From Chitinophaga pinensis (lineage in GTDB: Bacteria; Bacteroidota; Bacteroidia; Bacteroidales; Prolixibacteraceae), in contig CAMDGL010000001.1 of assembly GCA_945897845.1 (NCBI GenBank), positions 1-35,671 of the forward strand: a stretch of 35,671 nt of DNA, written 5' to 3'. Both the position numbers and the translations under genes were made by a program. Below the pieces are notes generated by a model, which was not told the origin of the DNA, ran no database searches, and was given only the letters and a program-made list of their open reading frames with translations. The stretch's first letter is position 1. Each line of letters begins with the position of its first letter. Below, piece by piece: positions 13,065 to 30,322 of the stretch.

Positions 13065-14053
13065 ATGGAAAAAACGGTCAAAAAAACGCGTAAAAGTCGC
13101 TGTTGGTCCTGTGGCAGTTTGGATGTAATCAGGTGGGGGAAACAATCCGGGAAACATCGATTTAGATGTAAGAAATGTGGTATTTACTTTACTCCAACGA
13201 AGCCACAATTAAGTGAGCAAAATCGCTTCATCTGGTTTAGGGAATGGATTGAAGGCAAGCAAACATTTTCCCAGTTGGTTATGCGAAGTACTTATAGTGA
13301 ACGAACTCTGAAACGCTACTTCTATAGCTATCTAAAATCTTATCCTGTTTGGAAAATCAGGCCGGCAGAAAAGGTGAATCTGCTCATTGATGGTACCTAC
13401 TTCGCAAATAAAGTGTGTTTAGTTTTGTATCGGGATAACAATGTCAAAGCAACTCAACTATACCGGCTAGTGATGGCGAATGGGAAGAAGAAATCAGGGA
13501 GGATCTGTCGAATCTCTTATCCTTAGGCATTACAATTGAAAGCGTTACCTGTGATGGATTAAGCAATATCTTAAAAGCCATCAGGAAAACTTGTCCTCAA
13601 GCTATTATCCAGCGATGTCTGGCTCACATCCAGCGGGAGGTGCTGATCTGGCTGACCAGGAACCCAAAGAGCGATGCCGGGATAGAACTTCGGGAGATTG
13701 TGAAGAAACTCCACTTGATTGATGACAAAAACAAATGGGGATATTGGGTGGTGGAAATGATGCAATGGTATCAGAGATATCAGTCAATTGTGAATGAGAA
13801 AAGCTATGCCCCACAAACTAAACGATACTGGTTCACCCATAAAAGTATCCGGAAATCATTCATTCACATCAAACGAGCTTTACCAGACATGTTCCAGTAT
13901 TTAGAGAATCCAGATATCCCAAAGACAACCAACGGACTGGAGTCGTTCTTTGGTCATTTGAAGCAAAACATCTCCCTTCACAGAGGACTTTCCAAGGAAC
14001 ATTACAAGAACTATATCAAGTGGTATCTGTATTTTAGAAGCAATGAAAAGTGA
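13065..14053 (+). pseudogene. Transposase split by one frameshift near 13469 (329 aa if restored)
   Basis: CWSC...FRCKKC zinc ribbon and LIDGTYF in frame 1; the alternative frame continues SDGEWEEEIREDL...VTCDG...IQRCLAHIQRE...IPKTTNGLESFFGHLK. Confidence 0.85.
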
Positions 14054-14072: not shown

Positions 14073-14187
14073 GGATACCAGTAATGAAAAAGGAGGAGCC
14101 TTGAACTCCTCCCATTACTGTTTATCCGTAAAGCCTATTGCTGGCAAGTTGCTCTCCAGCAGAGCCTGCTTCCTCTTCAACTTTACG
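14073..14187. ncRNA. Candidate structured RNA element in the IS 3' non-coding region
   Basis: Nested stems ggata/tatcc, cagtaatg/cattactg, ggaggag/ctcctcc; second domain gtaaag/ctttac enclosing gctct/agagc whose loop ccagc is complementary to gctgg; no expression evidence. Confidence 0.45.
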
Positions 14188-14278: not shown

Positions 14279-14728
14279 TTAGCTTAACAGCTCTTTCACT
14301 TTTTCTGAGATGTCTTTCCCATCGGCCAGACCAGCCAGCTTTTTGGAAGCGATTCCCATTACTTTACCCATTTCCTTGATGCTCGTGGCGCCTACTTCAG
14401 TAATAATAGCCTGAATGGATGCTGTCAACTCGGCATCAGACATTTTTACCGGAAGGTAGGTTTCGAAAACTTTTACCTGAAACATTTCCTGATCATACAA
14501 ATCGTCGCGACCCTGTTCTTTGTAAATGTTGGCAGAATCGGTTCCCTGTTTTGCCAGTTTCTGGATAATCTTCAGCACTTCCTGATCGGTGAGTTCGCCA
14601 GTTGCACCAGCCGCAGATTTTGCTTCAATCATTACCTTTTTTATTCCGCGCAAAGCTTCTAGTTTATCCTTTTCACGCGCTTTCATCGCGGTCAAAATAT
14701 CACTGCTTATCTGATCAAATAGATTCAT
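14279..14728 (-). CDS. yqeY: GatB/YqeY domain protein
   Basis: AMKAREK..L..LR, YLP..MS, KEMGKVMG, ADGK; usual position after ftsZ in Bacteroidota. Confidence 0.9.
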   Translation of the reverse strand: MNLFDQISSDILTAMKAREKDKLEALRGIKKVMIEAKSAAGATGELTDQEVLKIIQKLAKQGTDSANIYKEQGRDDLYDQEMFQVKVFETYLPVKMSDAELTASIQAIITEVGATSIKEMGKVMGIASKKLAGLADGKDISEKVKELLS

Positions 14729-14739
14729 GTTCTTAAATA

Positions 14740-16158
14740 TTAGTCAACGTTATCGTGCAAATATGAATTGTTGTCACGTAAAATTACATCATTATTTTCA
14801 TCCGGAGAAATAGAGAATCGGGAGAATTTTTCTTCAACTTTTTTTTTAAACCCTGAAAACCGGAGATTCTTCCGACGATAGGCAGGAATATTCTCCAACT
14901 CATCAACCGCCTCTTCGGTTGTTTGGGTGAAATCGACCGGCTCGTTTAGCTGATTGTAATTTTCCTTTTTGGGATGATTTCCGTAAAGTTCTTCAAACTC
15001 GTCGAACACACTTGTATTAATTTCAAATTCAAATGTTTTTTGCTTTACATTCTTCGAACCGTACAATTCATTTTCAACCGAAGATTTAACTTCCGACTTT
15101 ACTGCAGATTTGTTCTCATGAACTTCGTCACTCAGGGTATGGTAAGTTTTTTCCTGATTTTGGTTCATTGCCATTTCAGGAATACTGCTGGTACTGAATC
15201 CAGTAGCAATAATTGTTACTGAAATTTTGTCGCCCAGTTCTTCATCAACACCATTTCCCCAGATCAAATCGGCAGAATTACCGGCTTTTTCCTGAATAAA
15301 GTCGGTGATTTCTCCAATCTCGTCCATTGTAATTTCTTCCGATCCTGAAGTAATGTTCAGCAAAATGTTGCGCGCACCCAAGATGTCGTTGTTGTTCAGC
15401 AATGGAGAATTCAAAGCTTCTTCAACGGCAATCAGCGCACGATTTACTCCTGAAGCAACCCCGGTTCCCATGAGGGCAACGCCACTGTTGCGCATCACTG
15501 TTTCAACATCGGCAAAGTCAACGTTGATATAACCCGGAACCGTAATAATTTCGGCAATTCCCTTTGCCGCAGTAGCCAGAATATTGTCGGCTTTTGCAAA
15601 TGCGTCCGAGATTTTAAAATCGCCGTACATTTCGCGGATGCGTTCGTTGTTGATCACCAGCAGCGAATCGACATGTGTTTCCATGGCTGCAATCCCGTCA
15701 ATGGCCTGTTTGATGCGGCGGCGTCCTTCGTTGCGGAAAGGAATAGTCACAATTCCGACTGTCAGAATACCAAGTTCTTTGGCTGCCTGAGCAATTACCG
15801 GAGCTCCACCCGTGCCAGTTCCACCGCCCATTCCGGCAGTAATGAAAACCATTTTTGTATTGCTGCCCAGTATCTTTTTTACATCTTCAATGTTTTCGAT
15901 GGCAGCATCGCGACCGGTTTCAGGTTTATTTCCGGCGCCGCGGCCTTCTGTAAGCGAGGAACCAAGTTGAACCTTGAATGGAACCGGACTGTTTACCAAT
16001 GCTTGTGAATCGGTATTGCAAACCATAAAATCCACATCACGAATTCCCTGATGGTACATGTGATTTACTGCATTTCCACCACCACCGCCTACACCAATTA
16101 CCTTTATGATTGAACCCAAGTTCGAGGCAATTTCAAAATTCATTATTTCGTTCGACAT
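14740..16158 (-). CDS. ftsZ: Cell division protein FtsZ, canonical copy
   Basis: [26 protein letters not shown]7 loop NVDFAD; C-terminal IPAYRRK and [10 protein letters not shown]. Confidence 0.97.
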
Positions 16159-16193: not shown

Positions 16194-17471
16194 TTATTGC
16201 ATCTCTTCTGATTCCGGGGAATCCTTGCCCTCAAAGAATTTTGTAAATTGACGAGAGAACCAACTGTTTGTATCTTCCGGAGTTGATTCGCCGACCAGTT
16301 CATTTTTCCGGCGCGCTTTTCGTTTTGCGGATTTTTCATCCTGAAGCGGATGGTTTTTAACCTCCTTCAAAATCTCCCTTTTCGGAGTGATGGCTTCTAC
16401 TGCTTCCAATGATTTTTCATCTTCAAGATTGATTTCAAATTCATTGGGCTCCAGCATCAATTCCACCACTTCGGCAGGACGCTGAAATATCCGGTTCGGG
16501 TTCACATCGAAACCTGTCGCTATAATTGTAACACTTATCTGGTCGCCAAGTCTTAAATCAATGCCGTTTCCCCAGATAATTGTCGCATCCTGGCCTGCTG
16601 CTTCCTGCAAATAATCGATGATTTCGCCAATTTCGCCCATCGTGATTTCCTCCGTTCCAGAGATAATATTGAGCAAAATATCTTTGGTACCTTTGATGCT
16701 GCTGCTGTCTAACAAAGGCGATTCGAGCGCCTGTTGAACCGACTTCATGGCGCGGCCTTCGCCGGTTGCAAAACCAGTCCCCATGATAAACACTTCACTG
16801 CCGGCCATCACCGTGCAAACGTCGGCAAAGTCGATGTTGATGTTTCCGTGAAGGGTAATTATTTCGGCAACTCCTTTTACGGCAGTGGTAATAATATTGT
16901 CGGCCTTTTTAAATGCCTGTGAGGCCGGAAGATTTCCGTATATTTTATGTAGTTTCTCGTTGCTGATTACCAGCATACTATCCACATGATCTTTTAGTTT
17001 GTCGATTCCTGCACGTGCCTGATCGTACCTCCTTTTCCCTTCGGAAGGTGATGGAAGCGTAACAACTGCAATGGTCAGGATTCCTAAATCACGCGCAAGT
17101 TGTGCGATTACCGGGGCAGCTCCGGTTCCGGTTCCACCTCCCATTCCCGCGGTGATAAACACCATTTTTGTTGAACCTTCCAGAACATTCCGGATATCGT
17201 CCAGATTTTCGATGGCAGCCTGTTCGCCCTGCTCCGGTAAATTGCCGGCACCACGCCCTTCAGTAAGGGTCACCCCGAGCTGAATGCGGATTGGTACCGG
17301 ATTGTTTTGCATCGCCTGAGCATCGGTATTGCAAATAACAAAGTCAACGCCAATAATGCCTTCATCAAACATGTGTTTGACTGCATTACACCCACCTCCT
17401 CCAACACCAATTACCTTGATGATTGAAGAGTTTGCTTGCTCTATTCCGAAATTTAGAATGTCGTCGATCAT
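16194..17471 (-). CDS. ftsZ: FtsZ paralog with atypical C-terminus
   Basis: [30 protein letters not shown] intact; no IPAY/F peptide; ends SWFSRQFTKFFEGKDSPESEEMQ. Confidence 0.93.
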   Translation of the reverse strand: MIDDILNFGIEQANSSIIKVIGVGGGGCNAVKHMFDEGIIGVDFVICNTDAQAMQNNPVPIRIQLGVTLTEGRGAGNLPEQGEQAAIENLDDIRNVLEGSTKMVFITAGMGGGTGTGAAPVIAQLARDLGILTIAVVTLPSPSEGKRRYDQARAGIDKLKDHVDSMLVISNEKLHKIYGNLPASQAFKKADNIITTAVKGVAEIITLHGNINIDFADVCTVMAGSEVFIMGTGFATGEGRAMKSVQQALESPLLDSSSIKGTKDILLNIISGTEEITMGEIGEIIDYLQEAAGQDATIIWGNGIDLRLGDQISVTIIATGFDVNPNRIFQRPAEVVELMLEPNEFEINLEDEKSLEAVEAITPKREILKEVKNHPLQDEKSAKRKARRKNELVGESTPEDTNSWFSRQFTKFFEGKDSPESEEMQ

Positions 17472-17496
17472 AAGGCAGACATGATTATATTAATAG

Positions 17497-18789
17497 CTAA
17501 CTCATTTCAGTGTCTTCAGGATTTTCTTCAAAAAAACCAAGAACACCCTGAAATATTTTATTTTGCATTACTTTAATTAAGCCGGGTTCATTTGATTTCA
17601 CTTTTGGAACCTTTGTCTTTTTGCCACGCTTTCCAACCGGCCCTTCTTCTTCGGCAGCCATTTTCAGCAAGCCAAGAACAGTTGAAAACCGCGGATCGTC
17701 CACTTCTTTGCGAGCCACAAAATAATTCAGGTTCGGCCTGCCTTTTCTGACGTCAAAACCGGTGCGGAACTTTATCAACTGGCCCAGGTTTGGCAATAAT
17801 GATGTTCCTCCTGTAATTACAATTCCGGCGCCCAACTTATCCGCATATCCTGATTTTCTGATCTGGAAGGCAAATCCATCCACGATTTCTTCCATTCGTG
17901 CCTGAATAATGTTGGCCAGGCTTTTAAACGATATCTGGCGAGGTTCCCATCCCTGAATCGGAATGGTCACCACTTTATCTTCAGGAGCAAAATCGGCAAT
18001 GGCCTGACCAAACTGAACTTTTAGCGATTCGGCCTGACGAATGGTGATGGAACATCCTTCTTTTATGTCGTGGGTCAGTACATTTCCACCAAACGGAACC
18101 ATCGAAGTGTAACAAAGTACACCATCGCAGAAAATGGAAATCTTGGTAGTACCTCCGCCAATATCAACCAGGGCAACACCAGCTTCCTTTTCATCTTCGG
18201 TCAGAACGACCTCCGAAGAGGCAATCGGATCCAGAATTGATTTCTGTACATTGATTGAACCCTGCCTGAAGCAAGTGGCAATGTTTCGCGTATAATATTC
18301 AGGAGCAATATGCAATTTAAAATTACCTTCAATTTTTTCGCCGACAGCTCCAACTGGATTGACAATCCCAGCCTCATTATCAACTGTGTAAAATTCTGAA
18401 TTGATGTGGTAAACGCACATGCCATCCGGCAGTACAATTTTGCGCGCCTGCTCAGTCATTTGAACGACATCGGCTTCAGTTACAAAATGATCACGTCCGA
18501 TATTTCCATGAATGCGGGTAGTGAGCGTGGTCAGGTGTTGTCCTGATATGTTGACAAAAACGTTTTCGATTGGCTGACCACATTCCTTTTCAGCATGATT
18601 AACAGCGTCATTCACCGCAGCAAATGCCTCCTCAACATTCAGTACCACACCACGTTTGATACCGCGCGACGGACTGTGACCCAATCCAACAATCTGGATT
18701 TTATTGTCGTCCACCTTCTTACCGGCGAGGGCCACCACTTTTGTCGATCCGATGTCAACTGCTGCAAAAATTTTTTCGTTCTTGTCCAT
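17497..18789 (-). CDS. ftsA: Cell division protein FtsA
   Basis: DIGSTKV, DIGGGTT, GGNVLTHDI, AESLK, IIQARMEEI, ITGG; C-terminal amphipathic helix. Confidence 0.96.
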   Translation of the reverse strand: MDKNEKIFAAVDIGSTKVVALAGKKVDDNKIQIVGLGHSPSRGIKRGVVLNVEEAFAAVNDAVNHAEKECGQPIENVFVNISGQHLTTLTTRIHGNIGRDHFVTEADVVQMTEQARKIVLPDGMCVYHINSEFYTVDNEAGIVNPVGAVGEKIEGNFKLHIAPEYYTRNIATCFRQGSINVQKSILDPIASSEVVLTEDEKEAGVALVDIGGGTTKISIFCDGVLCYTSMVPFGGNVLTHDIKEGCSITIRQAESLKVQFGQAIADFAPEDKVVTIPIQGWEPRQISFKSLANIIQARMEEIVDGFAFQIRKSGYADKLGAGIVITGGTSLLPNLGQLIKFRTGFDVRKGRPNLNYFVARKEVDDPRFSTVLGLLKMAAEEEGPVGKRGKKTKVPKVKSNEPGLIKVMQNKIFQGVLGFFEENPEDTEMS

Positions 18790-18792
18790 AAT

Positions 18793-19548
18793 CTATTTTT
18801 TTGTACAAACAACCTGGTTCTGGTATTTCACACTGATGGCTTTATATTTGTTCCAGCCAAAATTCTTAAAACCCTGCTGGTAAACTGCTTTTAAATTCCT
18901 GAATTTCAACTCGTAATCATCGGGCCGGCCAAATTCGATGAGGTAATCGCCAACCTGTGGCAACAACCATAATTCACCGTTTGGCTGAATTAAAACCTGT
19001 TCGATCTGTGCCTTCCAAAAATCATCTTTGTTCACAAAATCGGTCATTTTCAGCAAATTGCGTTTAATCGTTTCATCAGGAATTGCGCCGCTGGCTATCA
19101 TGATCCGTTCAATGTATTTCGACGAAACCGGAATTTTCACTCCCTCCCTATCGAGGTAGTAATCTTCGTCGGCATCTTTAATCCTGAGTATCGGTGTCCG
19201 TTCATCGACGTTGATGATCAGCTTTCCTTTGAACGACCATCCATGTGCATCAATTTTCCGGTAGATTTCCACATTGGTCAGGGTAGCAAAGGTGGTCAGT
19301 TTTGTTTCGAGCATCTCAATATTAATGGCCGAAAGCCGGTGCCCGATAATTGGCTCTCCCGATTTTTCGATCATCCCGGCGATCTCCTCCTCATCCATAA
19401 ACCGGGGAGAATTAGGATTGATGAAGACCACAATTGACTGGCACCTCACCGCTTCCATTTGCGTGTAGGTGAAATAAATTGTAAATCCGACAAATCCTGC
19501 CAGGCCCAACCATCCTAAAATGACCAATATTTTTTTAACTATCGCCAT
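18793..19548 (-). CDS. ftsQ: Cell division protein FtsQ/DivIB
   Basis: N-terminal TM, POTRA-like region, ERTPILRI, C-terminal QVVCTKK; between murC and ftsA. Confidence 0.88.
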   Translation of the reverse strand: MAIVKKILVILGWLGLAGFVGFTIYFTYTQMEAVRCQSIVVFINPNSPRFMDEEEIAGMIEKSGEPIIGHRLSAINIEMLETKLTTFATLTNVEIYRKIDAHGWSFKGKLIINVDERTPILRIKDADEDYYLDREGVKIPVSSKYIERIMIASGAIPDETIKRNLLKMTDFVNKDDFWKAQIEQVLIQPNGELWLLPQVGDYLIEFGRPDDYELKFRNLKAVYQQGFKNFGWNKYKAISVKYQNQVVCTKK

Positions 19549-27763: not shown

Positions 27764-30322
27764 TTAATCTGTTTTTTTTGCATTTGCATTTTTTGCATCC
27801 AACGCCTTTTGTGCTGCAACCTTTGCCTTCCACTTTGCAATAGCTTCGGGACTTGCTTTTGGTTTTACTGCATTTTTCGTCTTTGATTTCTTTGCATCCG
27901 CAGCCTTTTGAGCAGCAACCTTCGCCTTCCACTTATCAATGGCCTCTTGAGTTGGTTTTGGCTTTTCTGTCTTTTTAACAGTTGCATTTTTCCCCTCCGC
28001 GGCTTTTTGTGCAGCAACTTTCGCCTTCCACTTATCAATGGCTTCCTGGTTGGGTTTTGGTTTTTCCGTTTGACTTTGCGTTGACTTTTCTTCTTTAACC
28101 CTAACTGCGTCAGTTGTATTTTCAGCCTGACCCAAAGCCATTGGCGCTGACTGAATGGAATCATTGGCTGTAATGCTGTCTCGTTTCATGATTTCAAGCG
28201 CATCGAAACCCAGTTCAAGTGAAATAATTTCACCTTTGGCTATTGGCATTCCGGGTTGTAACGACTGTCGGAATACACGTCCAAAACCATTTATTTTGGT
28301 GGCAAGGCCGTTTTTTTCCAAAAGATAAACTGCATCTCCGGCTCCCATCCCAACAACATCAGGAACTGTACCCGGAGCATCAGCCACTCCCTGCACAAAA
28401 ACAGTCATGGTATCGTTGGCTACTGCAACATATTCAGCAGTCATATTTTGCGACTGGTTTTTTAATCCCAGTTCCTGGGTAAAAAGCAGGACATCATCTT
28501 TCAAACCAGGTTTCACAACCGGCACTTCGTTGTAAGGCGGTATTGAATCGGCAACAGGTTCGAGGTACGAGGCATAAACTTTGTCGGCAATTCCCCTGAA
28601 AACAGGACCTGCCACCGAGCCTCCGTAGAATTTCCCTTTCGGACCAACAATCACAACGATGCAGGTAAATTCAGGCTTATCAGCCGGAAAATAACCGACA
28701 AAAGATGCCTGATACTTTTTCACCCCGCCTGATTTATATCCTCTGTTTTCGTCGGCAATAACTGCGGTTCCGGTTTTTCCGGCAATCGTATAATAAGGAT
28801 TTTTCAGCGATTTGCCTGTTCCATTGGTGCAAACACCTTTCAATAAATCCTGTGCTTTTGTTAAAGTAGTCTTCGAACAAATAGATGGATTGACAACCTC
28901 TGTTTTAAACTTCCGGACAGGAATTCCATTCTCCCTGATTTCTTCAATAAATTTTGGTTTTACCATTACTCCATTATTTGCCACTGCATTGTAAAAAGTC
29001 AGGGTTTGAATGGGCGTTATTTTAAATTCATAACCATGTGCAATCCATGCCAGCGAAGGTCCCCACCAATCAGCATCCGTCGGATATTTGATTCTTGGTT
29101 CAGCTTCTCCCAAAAATCCGAGCCCGAGTGGCTTATTTAGCCCGAAACTGTATATGCGGTCGATAAAATCTTTTTCGCGGCCCTCATAAAATTTGGTGAT
29201 AATTTTTGCCACTCCAATATTTGATGAAAGTTCGAAGATGCGTTTCATCGAAATCATTCCGTGGCCACCATGATCGTAGTCGCTGTCGAGCATTGTTTGC
29301 CGCTTATATTCCCATTTGCCATTTGCAGTATCGAACATATCCATGGTATCCACATACCCTTCTTCCATGGCTACCATCAGCGACATCAGTTTAAAGGTCG
29401 ATCCGGGTTCGCTGCAACCGGCATGGCCAAATGCAAAATTGTAGGTTTCGCCATAAGTTCCATCTTTTTTACGTCCCATGTTGGCTATGGCTTTTATGTT
29501 TCCGGTTTTCACCTCCATCACAATGGCAGTGCCCCATTCAGCCTGGCTGATTTCCATTTGCTTGCCCAAAGAAGATTGTGCGTAATCCTGAAGGTTCACA
29601 TTGATGGTGGTAATCACATCTTTCCCTTCTTTTGGCTCAATGAGCGGAGTATTGATCCAGCTTCCGGAGTAATTTCTTTTCAGCGCCATCCCATTCTGGC
29701 CTGCCAGATAATTTTCCGACAATCCTTCAACGCCGGTATATCCAACGTAACCATGCATGCCGCCAAAAACGCCTTTGTTCAAAACGCCAATGGTACGGCT
29801 GGCCAGATCGCCATGAGGCAAAATGCGTTTGTTCTCGGTAACAACCACCAGACCAGAGCCAAAATGGCTACGTGACATGGATTTAAGTTGTCTGAAATCC
29901 TGAAATTTATTGTGGTCGATTTGTTGGGGATTAATTAAAAACCACCGGTTTTTCTTGTCAAAAGCTACTTTCAGGCGATTCCTGAAATCGGTGGGCGAGA
30001 AACCAAAAAATGCAGACAATTCAACAACCATCTGTTCCGACTCTTTGGCAAATACTTGCTGGATACGAGGTGCCTGCATATCCATCCTGATTTCGTAATA
30101 AGGAACCGATGTCGATAAAATGCTGCCATCGTCGGCACAAATATTACCACGTTTGGCCCAAATATCGGTAGTATTGTTTCTCAGGTCTTTTGCAATCTGC
30201 TGCCATTTTTCGGTATCCACATTCTGAATAATAAGAATCCGGCTTATTATAACAAGTCCGAATAGGGCAATCAAAAAATAGATGATGCCGAATCGTAAGG
30301 TTATGGCTTTCCTGATTTCCAT
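27764..30322 (-). CDS. ftsI: Class B penicillin-binding protein FtsI with PASTA domain and repetitive basic tail
   Basis: TM, KRGNI, active-site STFK, SSN, KTG; PASTA VPDVVGM; between ftsL and murE. Confidence 0.95.
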   Translation of the reverse strand: MEIRKAITLRFGIIYFLIALFGLVIISRILIIQNVDTEKWQQIAKDLRNNTTDIWAKRGNICADDGSILSTSVPYYEIRMDMQAPRIQQVFAKESEQMVVELSAFFGFSPTDFRNRLKVAFDKKNRWFLINPQQIDHNKFQDFRQLKSMSRSHFGSGLVVVTENKRILPHGDLASRTIGVLNKGVFGGMHGYVGYTGVEGLSENYLAGQNGMALKRNYSGSWINTPLIEPKEGKDVITTINVNLQDYAQSSLGKQMEISQAEWGTAIVMEVKTGNIKAIANMGRKKDGTYGETYNFAFGHAGCSEPGSTFKLMSLMVAMEEGYVDTMDMFDTANGKWEYKRQTMLDSDYDHGGHGMISMKRIFELSSNIGVAKIITKFYEGREKDFIDRIYSFGLNKPLGLGFLGEAEPRIKYPTDADWWGPSLAWIAHGYEFKITPIQTLTFYNAVANNGVMVKPKFIEEIRENGIPVRKFKTEVVNPSICSKTTLTKAQDLLKGVCTNGTGKSLKNPYYTIAGKTGTAVIADENRGYKSGGVKKYQASFVGYFPADKPEFTCIVVIVGPKGKFYGGSVAGPVFRGIADKVYASYLEPVADSIPPYNEVPVVKPGLKDDVLLFTQELGLKNQSQNMTAEYVAVANDTMTVFVQGVADAPGTVPDVVGMGAGDAVYLLEKNGLATKINGFGRVFRQSLQPGMPIAKGEIISLELGFDALEIMKRDSITANDSIQSAPMALGQAENTTDAVRVKEEKSTQSQTEKPKPNQEAIDKWKAKVAAQKAAEGKNATVKKTEKPKPTQEAIDKWKAKVAAQKAADAKKSKTKNAVKPKASPEAIAKWKAKVAAQKALDAKNANAKKTD
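27767..28063 (-). repeat. Three tandem 99-nt (33-aa) coding repeats
   Basis: KPKPNQEAIDKWKAKVAAQKAAE..., KPKPTQEAIDKWKAKVAAQKAAD..., KPKASPEAIAKWKAKVAAQKALD... Confidence 0.92.

Follow-up and report, generated by a model that had tools for sequence, protein, structure and literature searches.

The dcw cluster of a 35,671-nucleotide stretch from Chitinophaga pinensis (GTDB lineage Bacteroidota, Bacteroidales, Prolixibacteraceae; assembly GCA_945897845.1, contig CAMDGL010000001.1, positions 1 to 35,671 of the forward strand, hereafter the window) holds two adjacent ftsZ genes. The product of the upstream gene, FtsZ-A, ends in an FtsA-like tail, whereas that of the downstream gene, FtsZ-B, carries the canonical C-terminal peptide (CTP). 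With a probability of roughly 0.55, we favour a reading in which FtsZ-A likely binds the inner membrane directly through this tail and probably co-assembles with FtsZ-B into a two-subunit division ring. A first-pass annotation of the same DNA had taken FtsZ-A for a ‘second’ FtsZ that may anchor itself by a membrane-targeting sequence (MTS) and could tether the canonical copy by co-polymerising with it. Overall this interpretation is partly supported, membrane binding and co-polymerisation both being argued from sequence. FtsZ-A is actually the first ftsZ in operon order.

A tandem ftsZ pair at the end of the dcw cluster

The minus-strand dcw cluster of the window ends with ftsA, ftsZ-A, ftsZ-B and yqeY, separated by intergenic gaps of 25, 35 and 11 bp (coordinates below are on the minus strand unless marked otherwise). 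The products of ftsZ-A (16194-17471, 425 residues) and ftsZ-B (14740-16158, 472 residues) both exceed the TIGR00065 cut-off of 295.2 (357 and 366 bits, respectively) and are 62% identical across 321 core residues. The GTPase core of FtsZ-A (residues 1-322, 16506-17471), which carries PF00091 (Tubulin) and PF12327 (FtsZ_C) and is modelled with a predicted local distance difference test (pLDDT) score of mostly 85-98, keeps the T4 signature GGGTGTG (residues 111-117, 17121-17141; invariant in 42 of 42 aligned orthologues) and the T7 loop NIDFAD (residues 212-217, 16821-16838), as the first-pass annotation had noted. Behind the core lie a disordered linker (residues 323-379, 16335-16505; pLDDT below 50 over residues 346-400; ratio of nonsynonymous to synonymous polymorphism, pN/pS, 0.44 for residues 323-397), a basic patch (residues 380-389, 16305-16334; in 61 of 72 orthologues a 10-residue segment preceding the helix has a net charge of +4 or more), the conserved amphipathic helix SWFSRQFTKFFE (residues 403-414, 16230-16265), which conservation, hydrophobic moment, AlphaFold2 and profiles mark as a predicted MTS, and an acidic end (residues 415-425 and stop, 16194-16229; median net charge after the helix of -4 among orthologues). 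The succession of patch, helix and acidic end, and the exact position of the helix, agree with the first-pass annotation.

The C-terminus of FtsZ-B consists of the CTP, ENIPAYRRK (14869-14895), followed at the very end by LHDNVD, and neither element is found in FtsZ-A, again in agreement with the earlier description. The neighbouring ftsA (17497-18789, 430 residues; TIGR01174, 311 bits) does end alike: its tail (17500-17631) comprises a basic patch, an amphipathic helix, a terminal hydrophobic pair (FF) and an acidic end, in the same hydrophobic register as the tail of FtsZ-A.

The tail of FtsZ-A is conserved and resembles that of FtsA

Taken alone, the single FtsZ-A sequence provides modest evidence for a helix. 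AlphaFold2 models one helix, at residues 402-413 after the disordered linker, with low confidence (pLDDT about 50-58). The hydrophobic moment, a check proposed in the first-pass annotation, is high for the best 11 residues of the window tail (0.72) but is equalled by 84 of 1968 long open reading frame C-termini of the same genome (top 4%), and it is accompanied by a weak lipid-binding score (see below). It is conservation that lifts the helix beyond chance: in the 72 family loci read (30 of them from one genus; 70 distinct tails), every upstream copy bears the motif W[FL]xx[QKNRMH][FL] with an invariant W, a lack of such conservation being one of the outcomes that the first-pass annotation had named as refuting its reading, and among 21 congeners pN is 0.15 in the helix vs 0.31 in the linker. 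The polar R and Q of the helix are kept in 55 and 56 of the 72 copies, respectively, giving a conserved D/N-x-W-F-x-R-Q. Four to five aromatic residues line one face, and the median hydrophobic moment of FtsZ-A tails, 0.75, compares with 0.62 for family FtsAs and 0.84 for E. coli FtsA. The upstream copy lacks a CTP in all 72 loci while all 70 complete downstream copies have one; the helix of FtsZ-A thus stands terminally in place of the CTP, as in self-anchoring FtsZs.

Profile comparisons with controls bear out the claim that an FtsA-like tail has replaced the CTP. Hidden Markov models (HMMs) were trained on sequences from non-family genomes with a single ftsZ at the retrieved locus (27 sequences for the FtsA-tail HMM). 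On the FtsA-tail HMM, FtsZ-A tails scored a median of 9.8 bits (n=70) and family FtsA tails 7.6 bits (n=65), vs -0.5 for amphipathic background C-termini (n=306) and 0.9 for shuffles (n=700); the 99th percentile of the background was exceeded by 54 of the 70 FtsZ-A tails and by 17 of 21 upstream tails from other families. On the CTP HMM the medians were -0.6 bits for FtsZ-A tails and 28.3 for B copies, E. coli FtsZ scoring 12.2, with 1 of 70 FtsZ-A tails above background vs 63 of 63 B copies, and no CTP pattern occurred in 72 FtsZ-A sequences. Akin to these scores, hhalign aligned FtsZ-A tails with Bacteroidales FtsA tails at a probability of 94.8% across 19 columns, vs 0.7% for the CTP. When the tails are anchored on the FF pair, those of FtsZ-A and FtsA are both hydrophobic at -7, -3 and +8 (at +8, among tails of sufficient length, 82% for FtsZ-A and 83% for FtsA from single-ftsZ genomes), and in both a basic zone precedes the helix and an acidic one follows it. 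Homology of the FtsZ-A tail with the FtsA tail is therefore likely, though not proven, the match being 19 columns long. We rejected two other derivations of the tail: from a remodelled CTP (on the HMM median and hhalign probability just given) and from a relic of the LHDNVD-type end (0.6 bits, 0.25%).

An altered filament interface on a conserved core

Purifying selection acts on the FtsZ-A core (pN/pS 0.11, congener comparison), and all 46 A copies compared retain N24, N43, D45, GGGTGTG, E138, R142, N165, F182, D186, N207, D209 and D212 (E. coli numbering). While the signatures thus stood up as first annotated, the core is not wholly canonical: residues of the T5 loop and of the H6-H7 interface are changed, and FtsZ-A departs from the consensus of B copies and single FtsZs at 13 core positions. 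The hydrophobic top-interface residues F135, F137 and L178, typical of canonical bacterial FtsZ, are not kept in the 46 A copies. At the F135 position these have S or A throughout, against F in every B copy (46 of 46) and every single FtsZ (94 of 94); at F137 they have mostly small or polar residues; at L178 they all have A, where B copies have I, L or M; and D273 has mostly become G. In the window these changes fall in a remodelled T5 loop, TLPSPSEG (residues 138-145, 17037-17060; S141 and S143 correspond to F135 and F137), and at A183 (16923-16925; the L178 position). FtsZ-B in turn has F137N in 45 of 46 copies. The position of E. coli L169 is Arg in 92 of 94 single Bacteroidota FtsZs and 43 of 46 B copies and mostly His in FtsZ-A; Arg here is the natural equivalent of L169R, a bundling, ZipA-bypass allele of FtsZ (PMC5508204).

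Interface residues also deviate in one copy of other multi-FtsZ families. In f32 it is the first upstream copy, A1, which has F137S/T with G139I (4/4), while elsewhere the odd core residues sit in the CTP-bearing copy: G106K in the T4 loop together with F137I in f19 (5/5; L068, L151-L154), and G103A, F135A and D186N in f124 (4/4; L159-L162). This recurrent remodelling, on which the first-pass annotation is silent, suggests that the paralogues are mutually adapted, whether they share a polymer or one regulates the polymer of the other.

As for divisome partners, the Q-x-R-x-x-E helix of FtsA (the docking region around E. coli R300) was found in 41 of 44 family FtsAs, and ZapA in all five genomes searched; SepF and MinC were found in none of the same number searched. 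With the CTP of FtsZ-B and the R300-equivalent docking helix of FtsA both retained, the case for FtsZ-A as an obligatory tether of the canonical copy is weakened.

Distribution within and beyond the family

Two or more FtsZ matches were present in 34 of 36 congeners and in 148 of 150 family genomes over 35 genera, a draw that includes nine genomes of the window's own genus; matches are not copy numbers, two genomes (G034, G119) having split genes and two others (G086, G100) a stop inside the match. Named records with the pair are Maribellus luteus, Prolixibacter bellariivorans and a Tangfeifania metagenome-assembled genome. One locus (L085), assigned to the Prolixibacteraceae by its submitter, contains just one ftsZ, of the canonical kind, and clusters with non-Bacteroidales sequences in the tree. 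The possibility that ftsZ-A is a pseudogene or an assembly artefact was rejected in view of its intact reading frame, the low pN/pS of its core and the tandem arrangement in closed single-contig genomes such as G022, G062, G105 and G158.

Among 396 genomes of the order outside the family, 370 had one FtsZ match, 6 none and 20 two or more. Of these 20, loci were fetched for 19, and one genome (G239) resembles a single gene split over two contigs. Sixteen loci from six other families show ftsA, then one or two CTP-less copies and a canonical copy last (contig-cut in one): f19 (5), f124 (4), f32 (4, triples), f69 (1, triple), f15 (1) and f95 (1, with an atypical tail). In the triple arrays (L155-L158, L163) two CTP-less copies with differing amphipathic tails precede the canonical copy, and the A1 and A2 copies each cluster across f32 and f69. 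In the tandem of one genome (G472) a CTP-like copy is followed by a truncated one, and in two genomes (G411, G489) the second copy is unlinked. All 95 complete FtsZs from other Bacteroidota loci were alone within the fetched stretch. Additional ftsZ copies in bacteria have been said to map outside the dcw cluster (PMC9871819), a statement that the dcw-embedded pair contradicts.

Unlinked, divergent FtsZ-like second or third genes (36-57% identity) also occur, at L070 (G019), L167 (G165), L170 (G411), G083:C281 and G085:C1, with unrelated C-terminal extensions in L167 and L170. The unlinked copy of G489 (locus L169, G489:C1:2293281-, family f125), a 519-residue frame away from ftsA, ends in an amphipathic stretch and an acidic end; its tail was excluded from tail scoring.

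Membrane anchor, docking motif or regulator

If FtsZ-A anchors itself, its short, nearly neutral helix would probably bind lipid weakly and hold only when multiplied along a filament, with help from the basic patch. We read the tail as a weak anchor that needs filament avidity, by analogy with the weak membrane binding reported for chloroplast FtsZ1 (PMC13650779); FtsA, for its part, is anchored by its C-terminal tail (restated in 10.1101/2023.08.29.555414). Co-assembly of FtsZ-A with FtsZ-B is made probable by the shared operon, the core identity and the joint interface changes, and we lean towards a co-polymer in which the changed top face of A and F137N of B tune filament stability. The ring would then have two anchors, FtsZ-B through FtsA and FtsZ-A directly.

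A number of observations weigh against this reading. On a HeliQuest-type lipid-binding discriminant, the median was 0.42 for FtsZ-A tails, 0.94 for family FtsAs and 1.91 for E. coli FtsA, the window FtsZ-A scoring 0.66. Of 45 FtsZ-A tails, 3 lay above 1.34, 12 within 0.68-1.34 and 30 below 0.68; among FtsA tails, values below 0.68 were found for 14 of 44 from the family and 1 of 27 from single-ftsZ genomes. The helix carries about +2 net, is followed by a charge of -4 and lacks roughly one turn compared with that of FtsA, and the invariance of its W, like the conservation of its polar R and Q, is stricter than lipid binding requires. Likeness to FtsA has its limits as well. The window tail reaches 5.8 bits on the FtsA-tail HMM, a score equalled by 20 of 1968 background ends, and the top background end, which we take to be DnaJ-like, reaches 11.1 bits, above the FtsZ-A median, so that convergence can give such likeness. 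Against a phylum-wide FtsA-tail profile hhalign gave FtsZ-A tails 24.7%, and a six-letter end motif is present in 36 of 45 FtsZ-A tails vs 14 of 92 FtsA tails from single-ftsZ genomes. Finally, FtsZ-A could be unable to polymerise, having lost F135, F137 and L178.

The strict W and the D/N-x-W-F-x-R-Q pattern, together with the weak discriminant and the acidic flanks, are what one would expect of a protein-docking motif that binds FtsA, or a partner also reading the FtsA tail, with the membrane reached via that adaptor. FtsZ-A tails are moreover closer to the FtsA tail of their own genome than to those of others (p=0.003, 29 genera; p=0.03 over nine hand-drawn clades, which corrects partly for kinship; p>0.5 for three control segments), which suggests a shared constraint. 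We nonetheless consider docking unlikely: the tails are unlike the CTP, family FtsA helices are likewise neutral and acid-flanked yet presumably anchor FtsA to the membrane, and the covariation, given the partial correction for kinship, fits a common lipid environment or gene conversion of the adjacent genes as well as it fits a shared partner.

The interface changes raise a different prospect, namely that FtsZ-A is a membrane-bound regulator or filament terminator that limits length or bundling, or that it forms its own separate polymer. As a terminator, its intact T7 face would dock on FtsZ-B and trigger hydrolysis, while its weakened top face would accept the next subunit poorly. F137 and L178 indeed pack into the next subunit (PMC7010359), polymerisation of S. 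aureus FtsZ is compromised by F138A on the top surface (E. coli F137; PMC5414002), and L169R raises bundling (PMC5508204); MinC and SepF were found in none of the five genomes. However, the GTP-contacting residues of the top face are all kept, which would suit a subunit still able to complete GTPase sites, FtsZ-B has its own F137N, so that both faces changed together in the family, and the core is under purifying selection; on balance a regulator or separate polymer appears improbable. Least probable by far is that FtsZ-A is a redundant dosage duplicate with a functionless tail. Precedents exist in the two redundant FtsZs of Segatella copri (10.64898/2026.04.17.719208) and the dispensable FtsZ1 of Agrobacterium (10.1101/412759), but the duplicate is kept almost throughout the family, its tail is conserved in all genera read, and its core has left the consensus at the 13 positions mentioned above.

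Origin of the pair

FtsZ-A probably arose via duplication across the 3' end of ftsA, and we think there is a good chance that its tail came from ftsA itself. A single tandem duplication reaching from the ftsA 3' end to within the ftsZ linker would yield ftsA, an ftsZ core with an FtsA tail and a canonical ftsZ in one step, and it predicts the gene order found throughout the seven families. Within the family, the A copies group as a single clade (support 100/99). In the approximately unbiased test, on trees that exclude f15, f105 and E. coli, neither a single clade of the 23 A copies (p=0.28) nor one joining the family's A and B copies (p=0.47) is rejected. The f124 tails score 17.6-30.4 bits on an FtsZ-A tail HMM and have the DNWF motif in common with the family tails, which suggests that these two, at least, have one origin. 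Only tentatively, and with more doubt than confidence, do we extend this to a Z-ring of two or three subunits across several walled Bacteroidales families, in which one subunit would have acquired the FtsA anchor by one tandem duplication, possibly repeated, and the paralogues would have refashioned their filament interfaces so that a heteropolymer is preferred or obligate.

Comparison with known FtsZ systems

Natural self-anchoring FtsZs are already known in Mycoplasma, Odinarchaeota and chloroplasts. Engineered FtsZ-YFP-MTS fusions, in which the CTP is swapped for an amphipathic helix, differ from the pair described here in being artificial and used alone, without a canonical partner. The CTP-less FtsZ of Mycoplasma genitalium and M. 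pneumoniae, like FtsZ-A, ends in an amphipathic helix and coexists with an FtsA whose own helix is retained; the M. genitalium helix binds liposomes, and membrane localisation was shown (10.1101/2023.08.29.555414). Those cells are wall-less, a cholesterol motif is noted, and the available text of that report describes no canonical partner FtsZ and proposes no FtsA origin, whereas the Prolixibacteraceae are walled and Gram-negative and have a canonical FtsZ encoded next door.

The chloroplast pair shows the same division of tails, FtsZ1 binding membrane directly but weakly through its C-terminus and FtsZ2 binding adaptors via its CTP (PMC13650779). It belongs to an organelle, uses ARC6/PARC6 rather than FtsA and stems from an unrelated duplication; its heteropolymers have been demonstrated, whereas co-assembly here is inferred. 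In Odinarchaeota, too, one of two paralogues anchors itself by an amphipathic helix and the other via an adaptor, but the system is archaeal, the helix, which has been tested experimentally, is N-terminal and the adaptor is SepF (PMC12583498), which was found in none of the five genomes searched here. Agrobacterium FtsZ1 and related tail-less alphaproteobacterial paralogues resemble FtsZ-A in being CTP-less and co-polymerise with the main FtsZ, FtsZ1 polymerising only with it; unlike FtsZ-A, FtsZ1 has neither linker nor tail, and the accessible text describes no membrane helix (10.1101/412759). S. copri, with two ftsZ genes in a Bacteroidales genome, differs in that both products are reported to keep the C-terminal adaptor-binding region, and its report, in the part available, mentions no FtsA-like tail (10.64898/2026.04.17.719208). 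A literature search, outside which most subscription papers and supplements fell, found no dcw-embedded ftsZ pair with an FtsA-like tail for the Bacteroidales.

Whether FtsA is a mere tether or an active organiser, and how FtsZ works alone on a membrane, have been studied mainly with engineered, wall-less and organellar systems. Were FtsZ-A a natural FtsZ-MTS, next to a canonical FtsZ and an intact FtsA, both questions could be addressed natively in cultured walled bacteria, M. luteus and P. bellariivorans being cultured carriers of the pair. It would also show how one local duplication can yield a two-subunit cytoskeletal polymer. The heteropolymeric ring tentatively put forward above would be a bacterial counterpart of the chloroplast FtsZ1/FtsZ2 ring, with FtsZ membrane attachment separated from FtsA in organisms that go on building a septal wall.

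Other features of the window

The final gene of the run, yqeY (14279-14728; PF09424), is followed by a terminator-like hairpin (14091-14113; 10-pair stem and T run, a consensus match only). A promoter scan returned 12 sites vs 11.3 in shuffles, i.e. no excess. The gene at the ftsQ position (18793-19548) has no NCBIfam or Pfam match and is assumed to be ftsQ by position alone. In the interval that separates guaB from the dcw run, two plus-strand open reading frames of 153 and 137 residues (13065-14053) resemble a split insertion-sequence transposase, the first having a weak, sub-threshold match to an InsA-type zinc ribbon. FtsI/PBP3 (27764-30322) is 852 residues long and has about 140 extra C-terminal residues past its PASTA domain (27764-28200). 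This extension, found in five of five congeners searched, comprises three copies of a Lys/Ala-rich, W-containing unit akin to PKPxQEAIDKWKAKVAAQKA.

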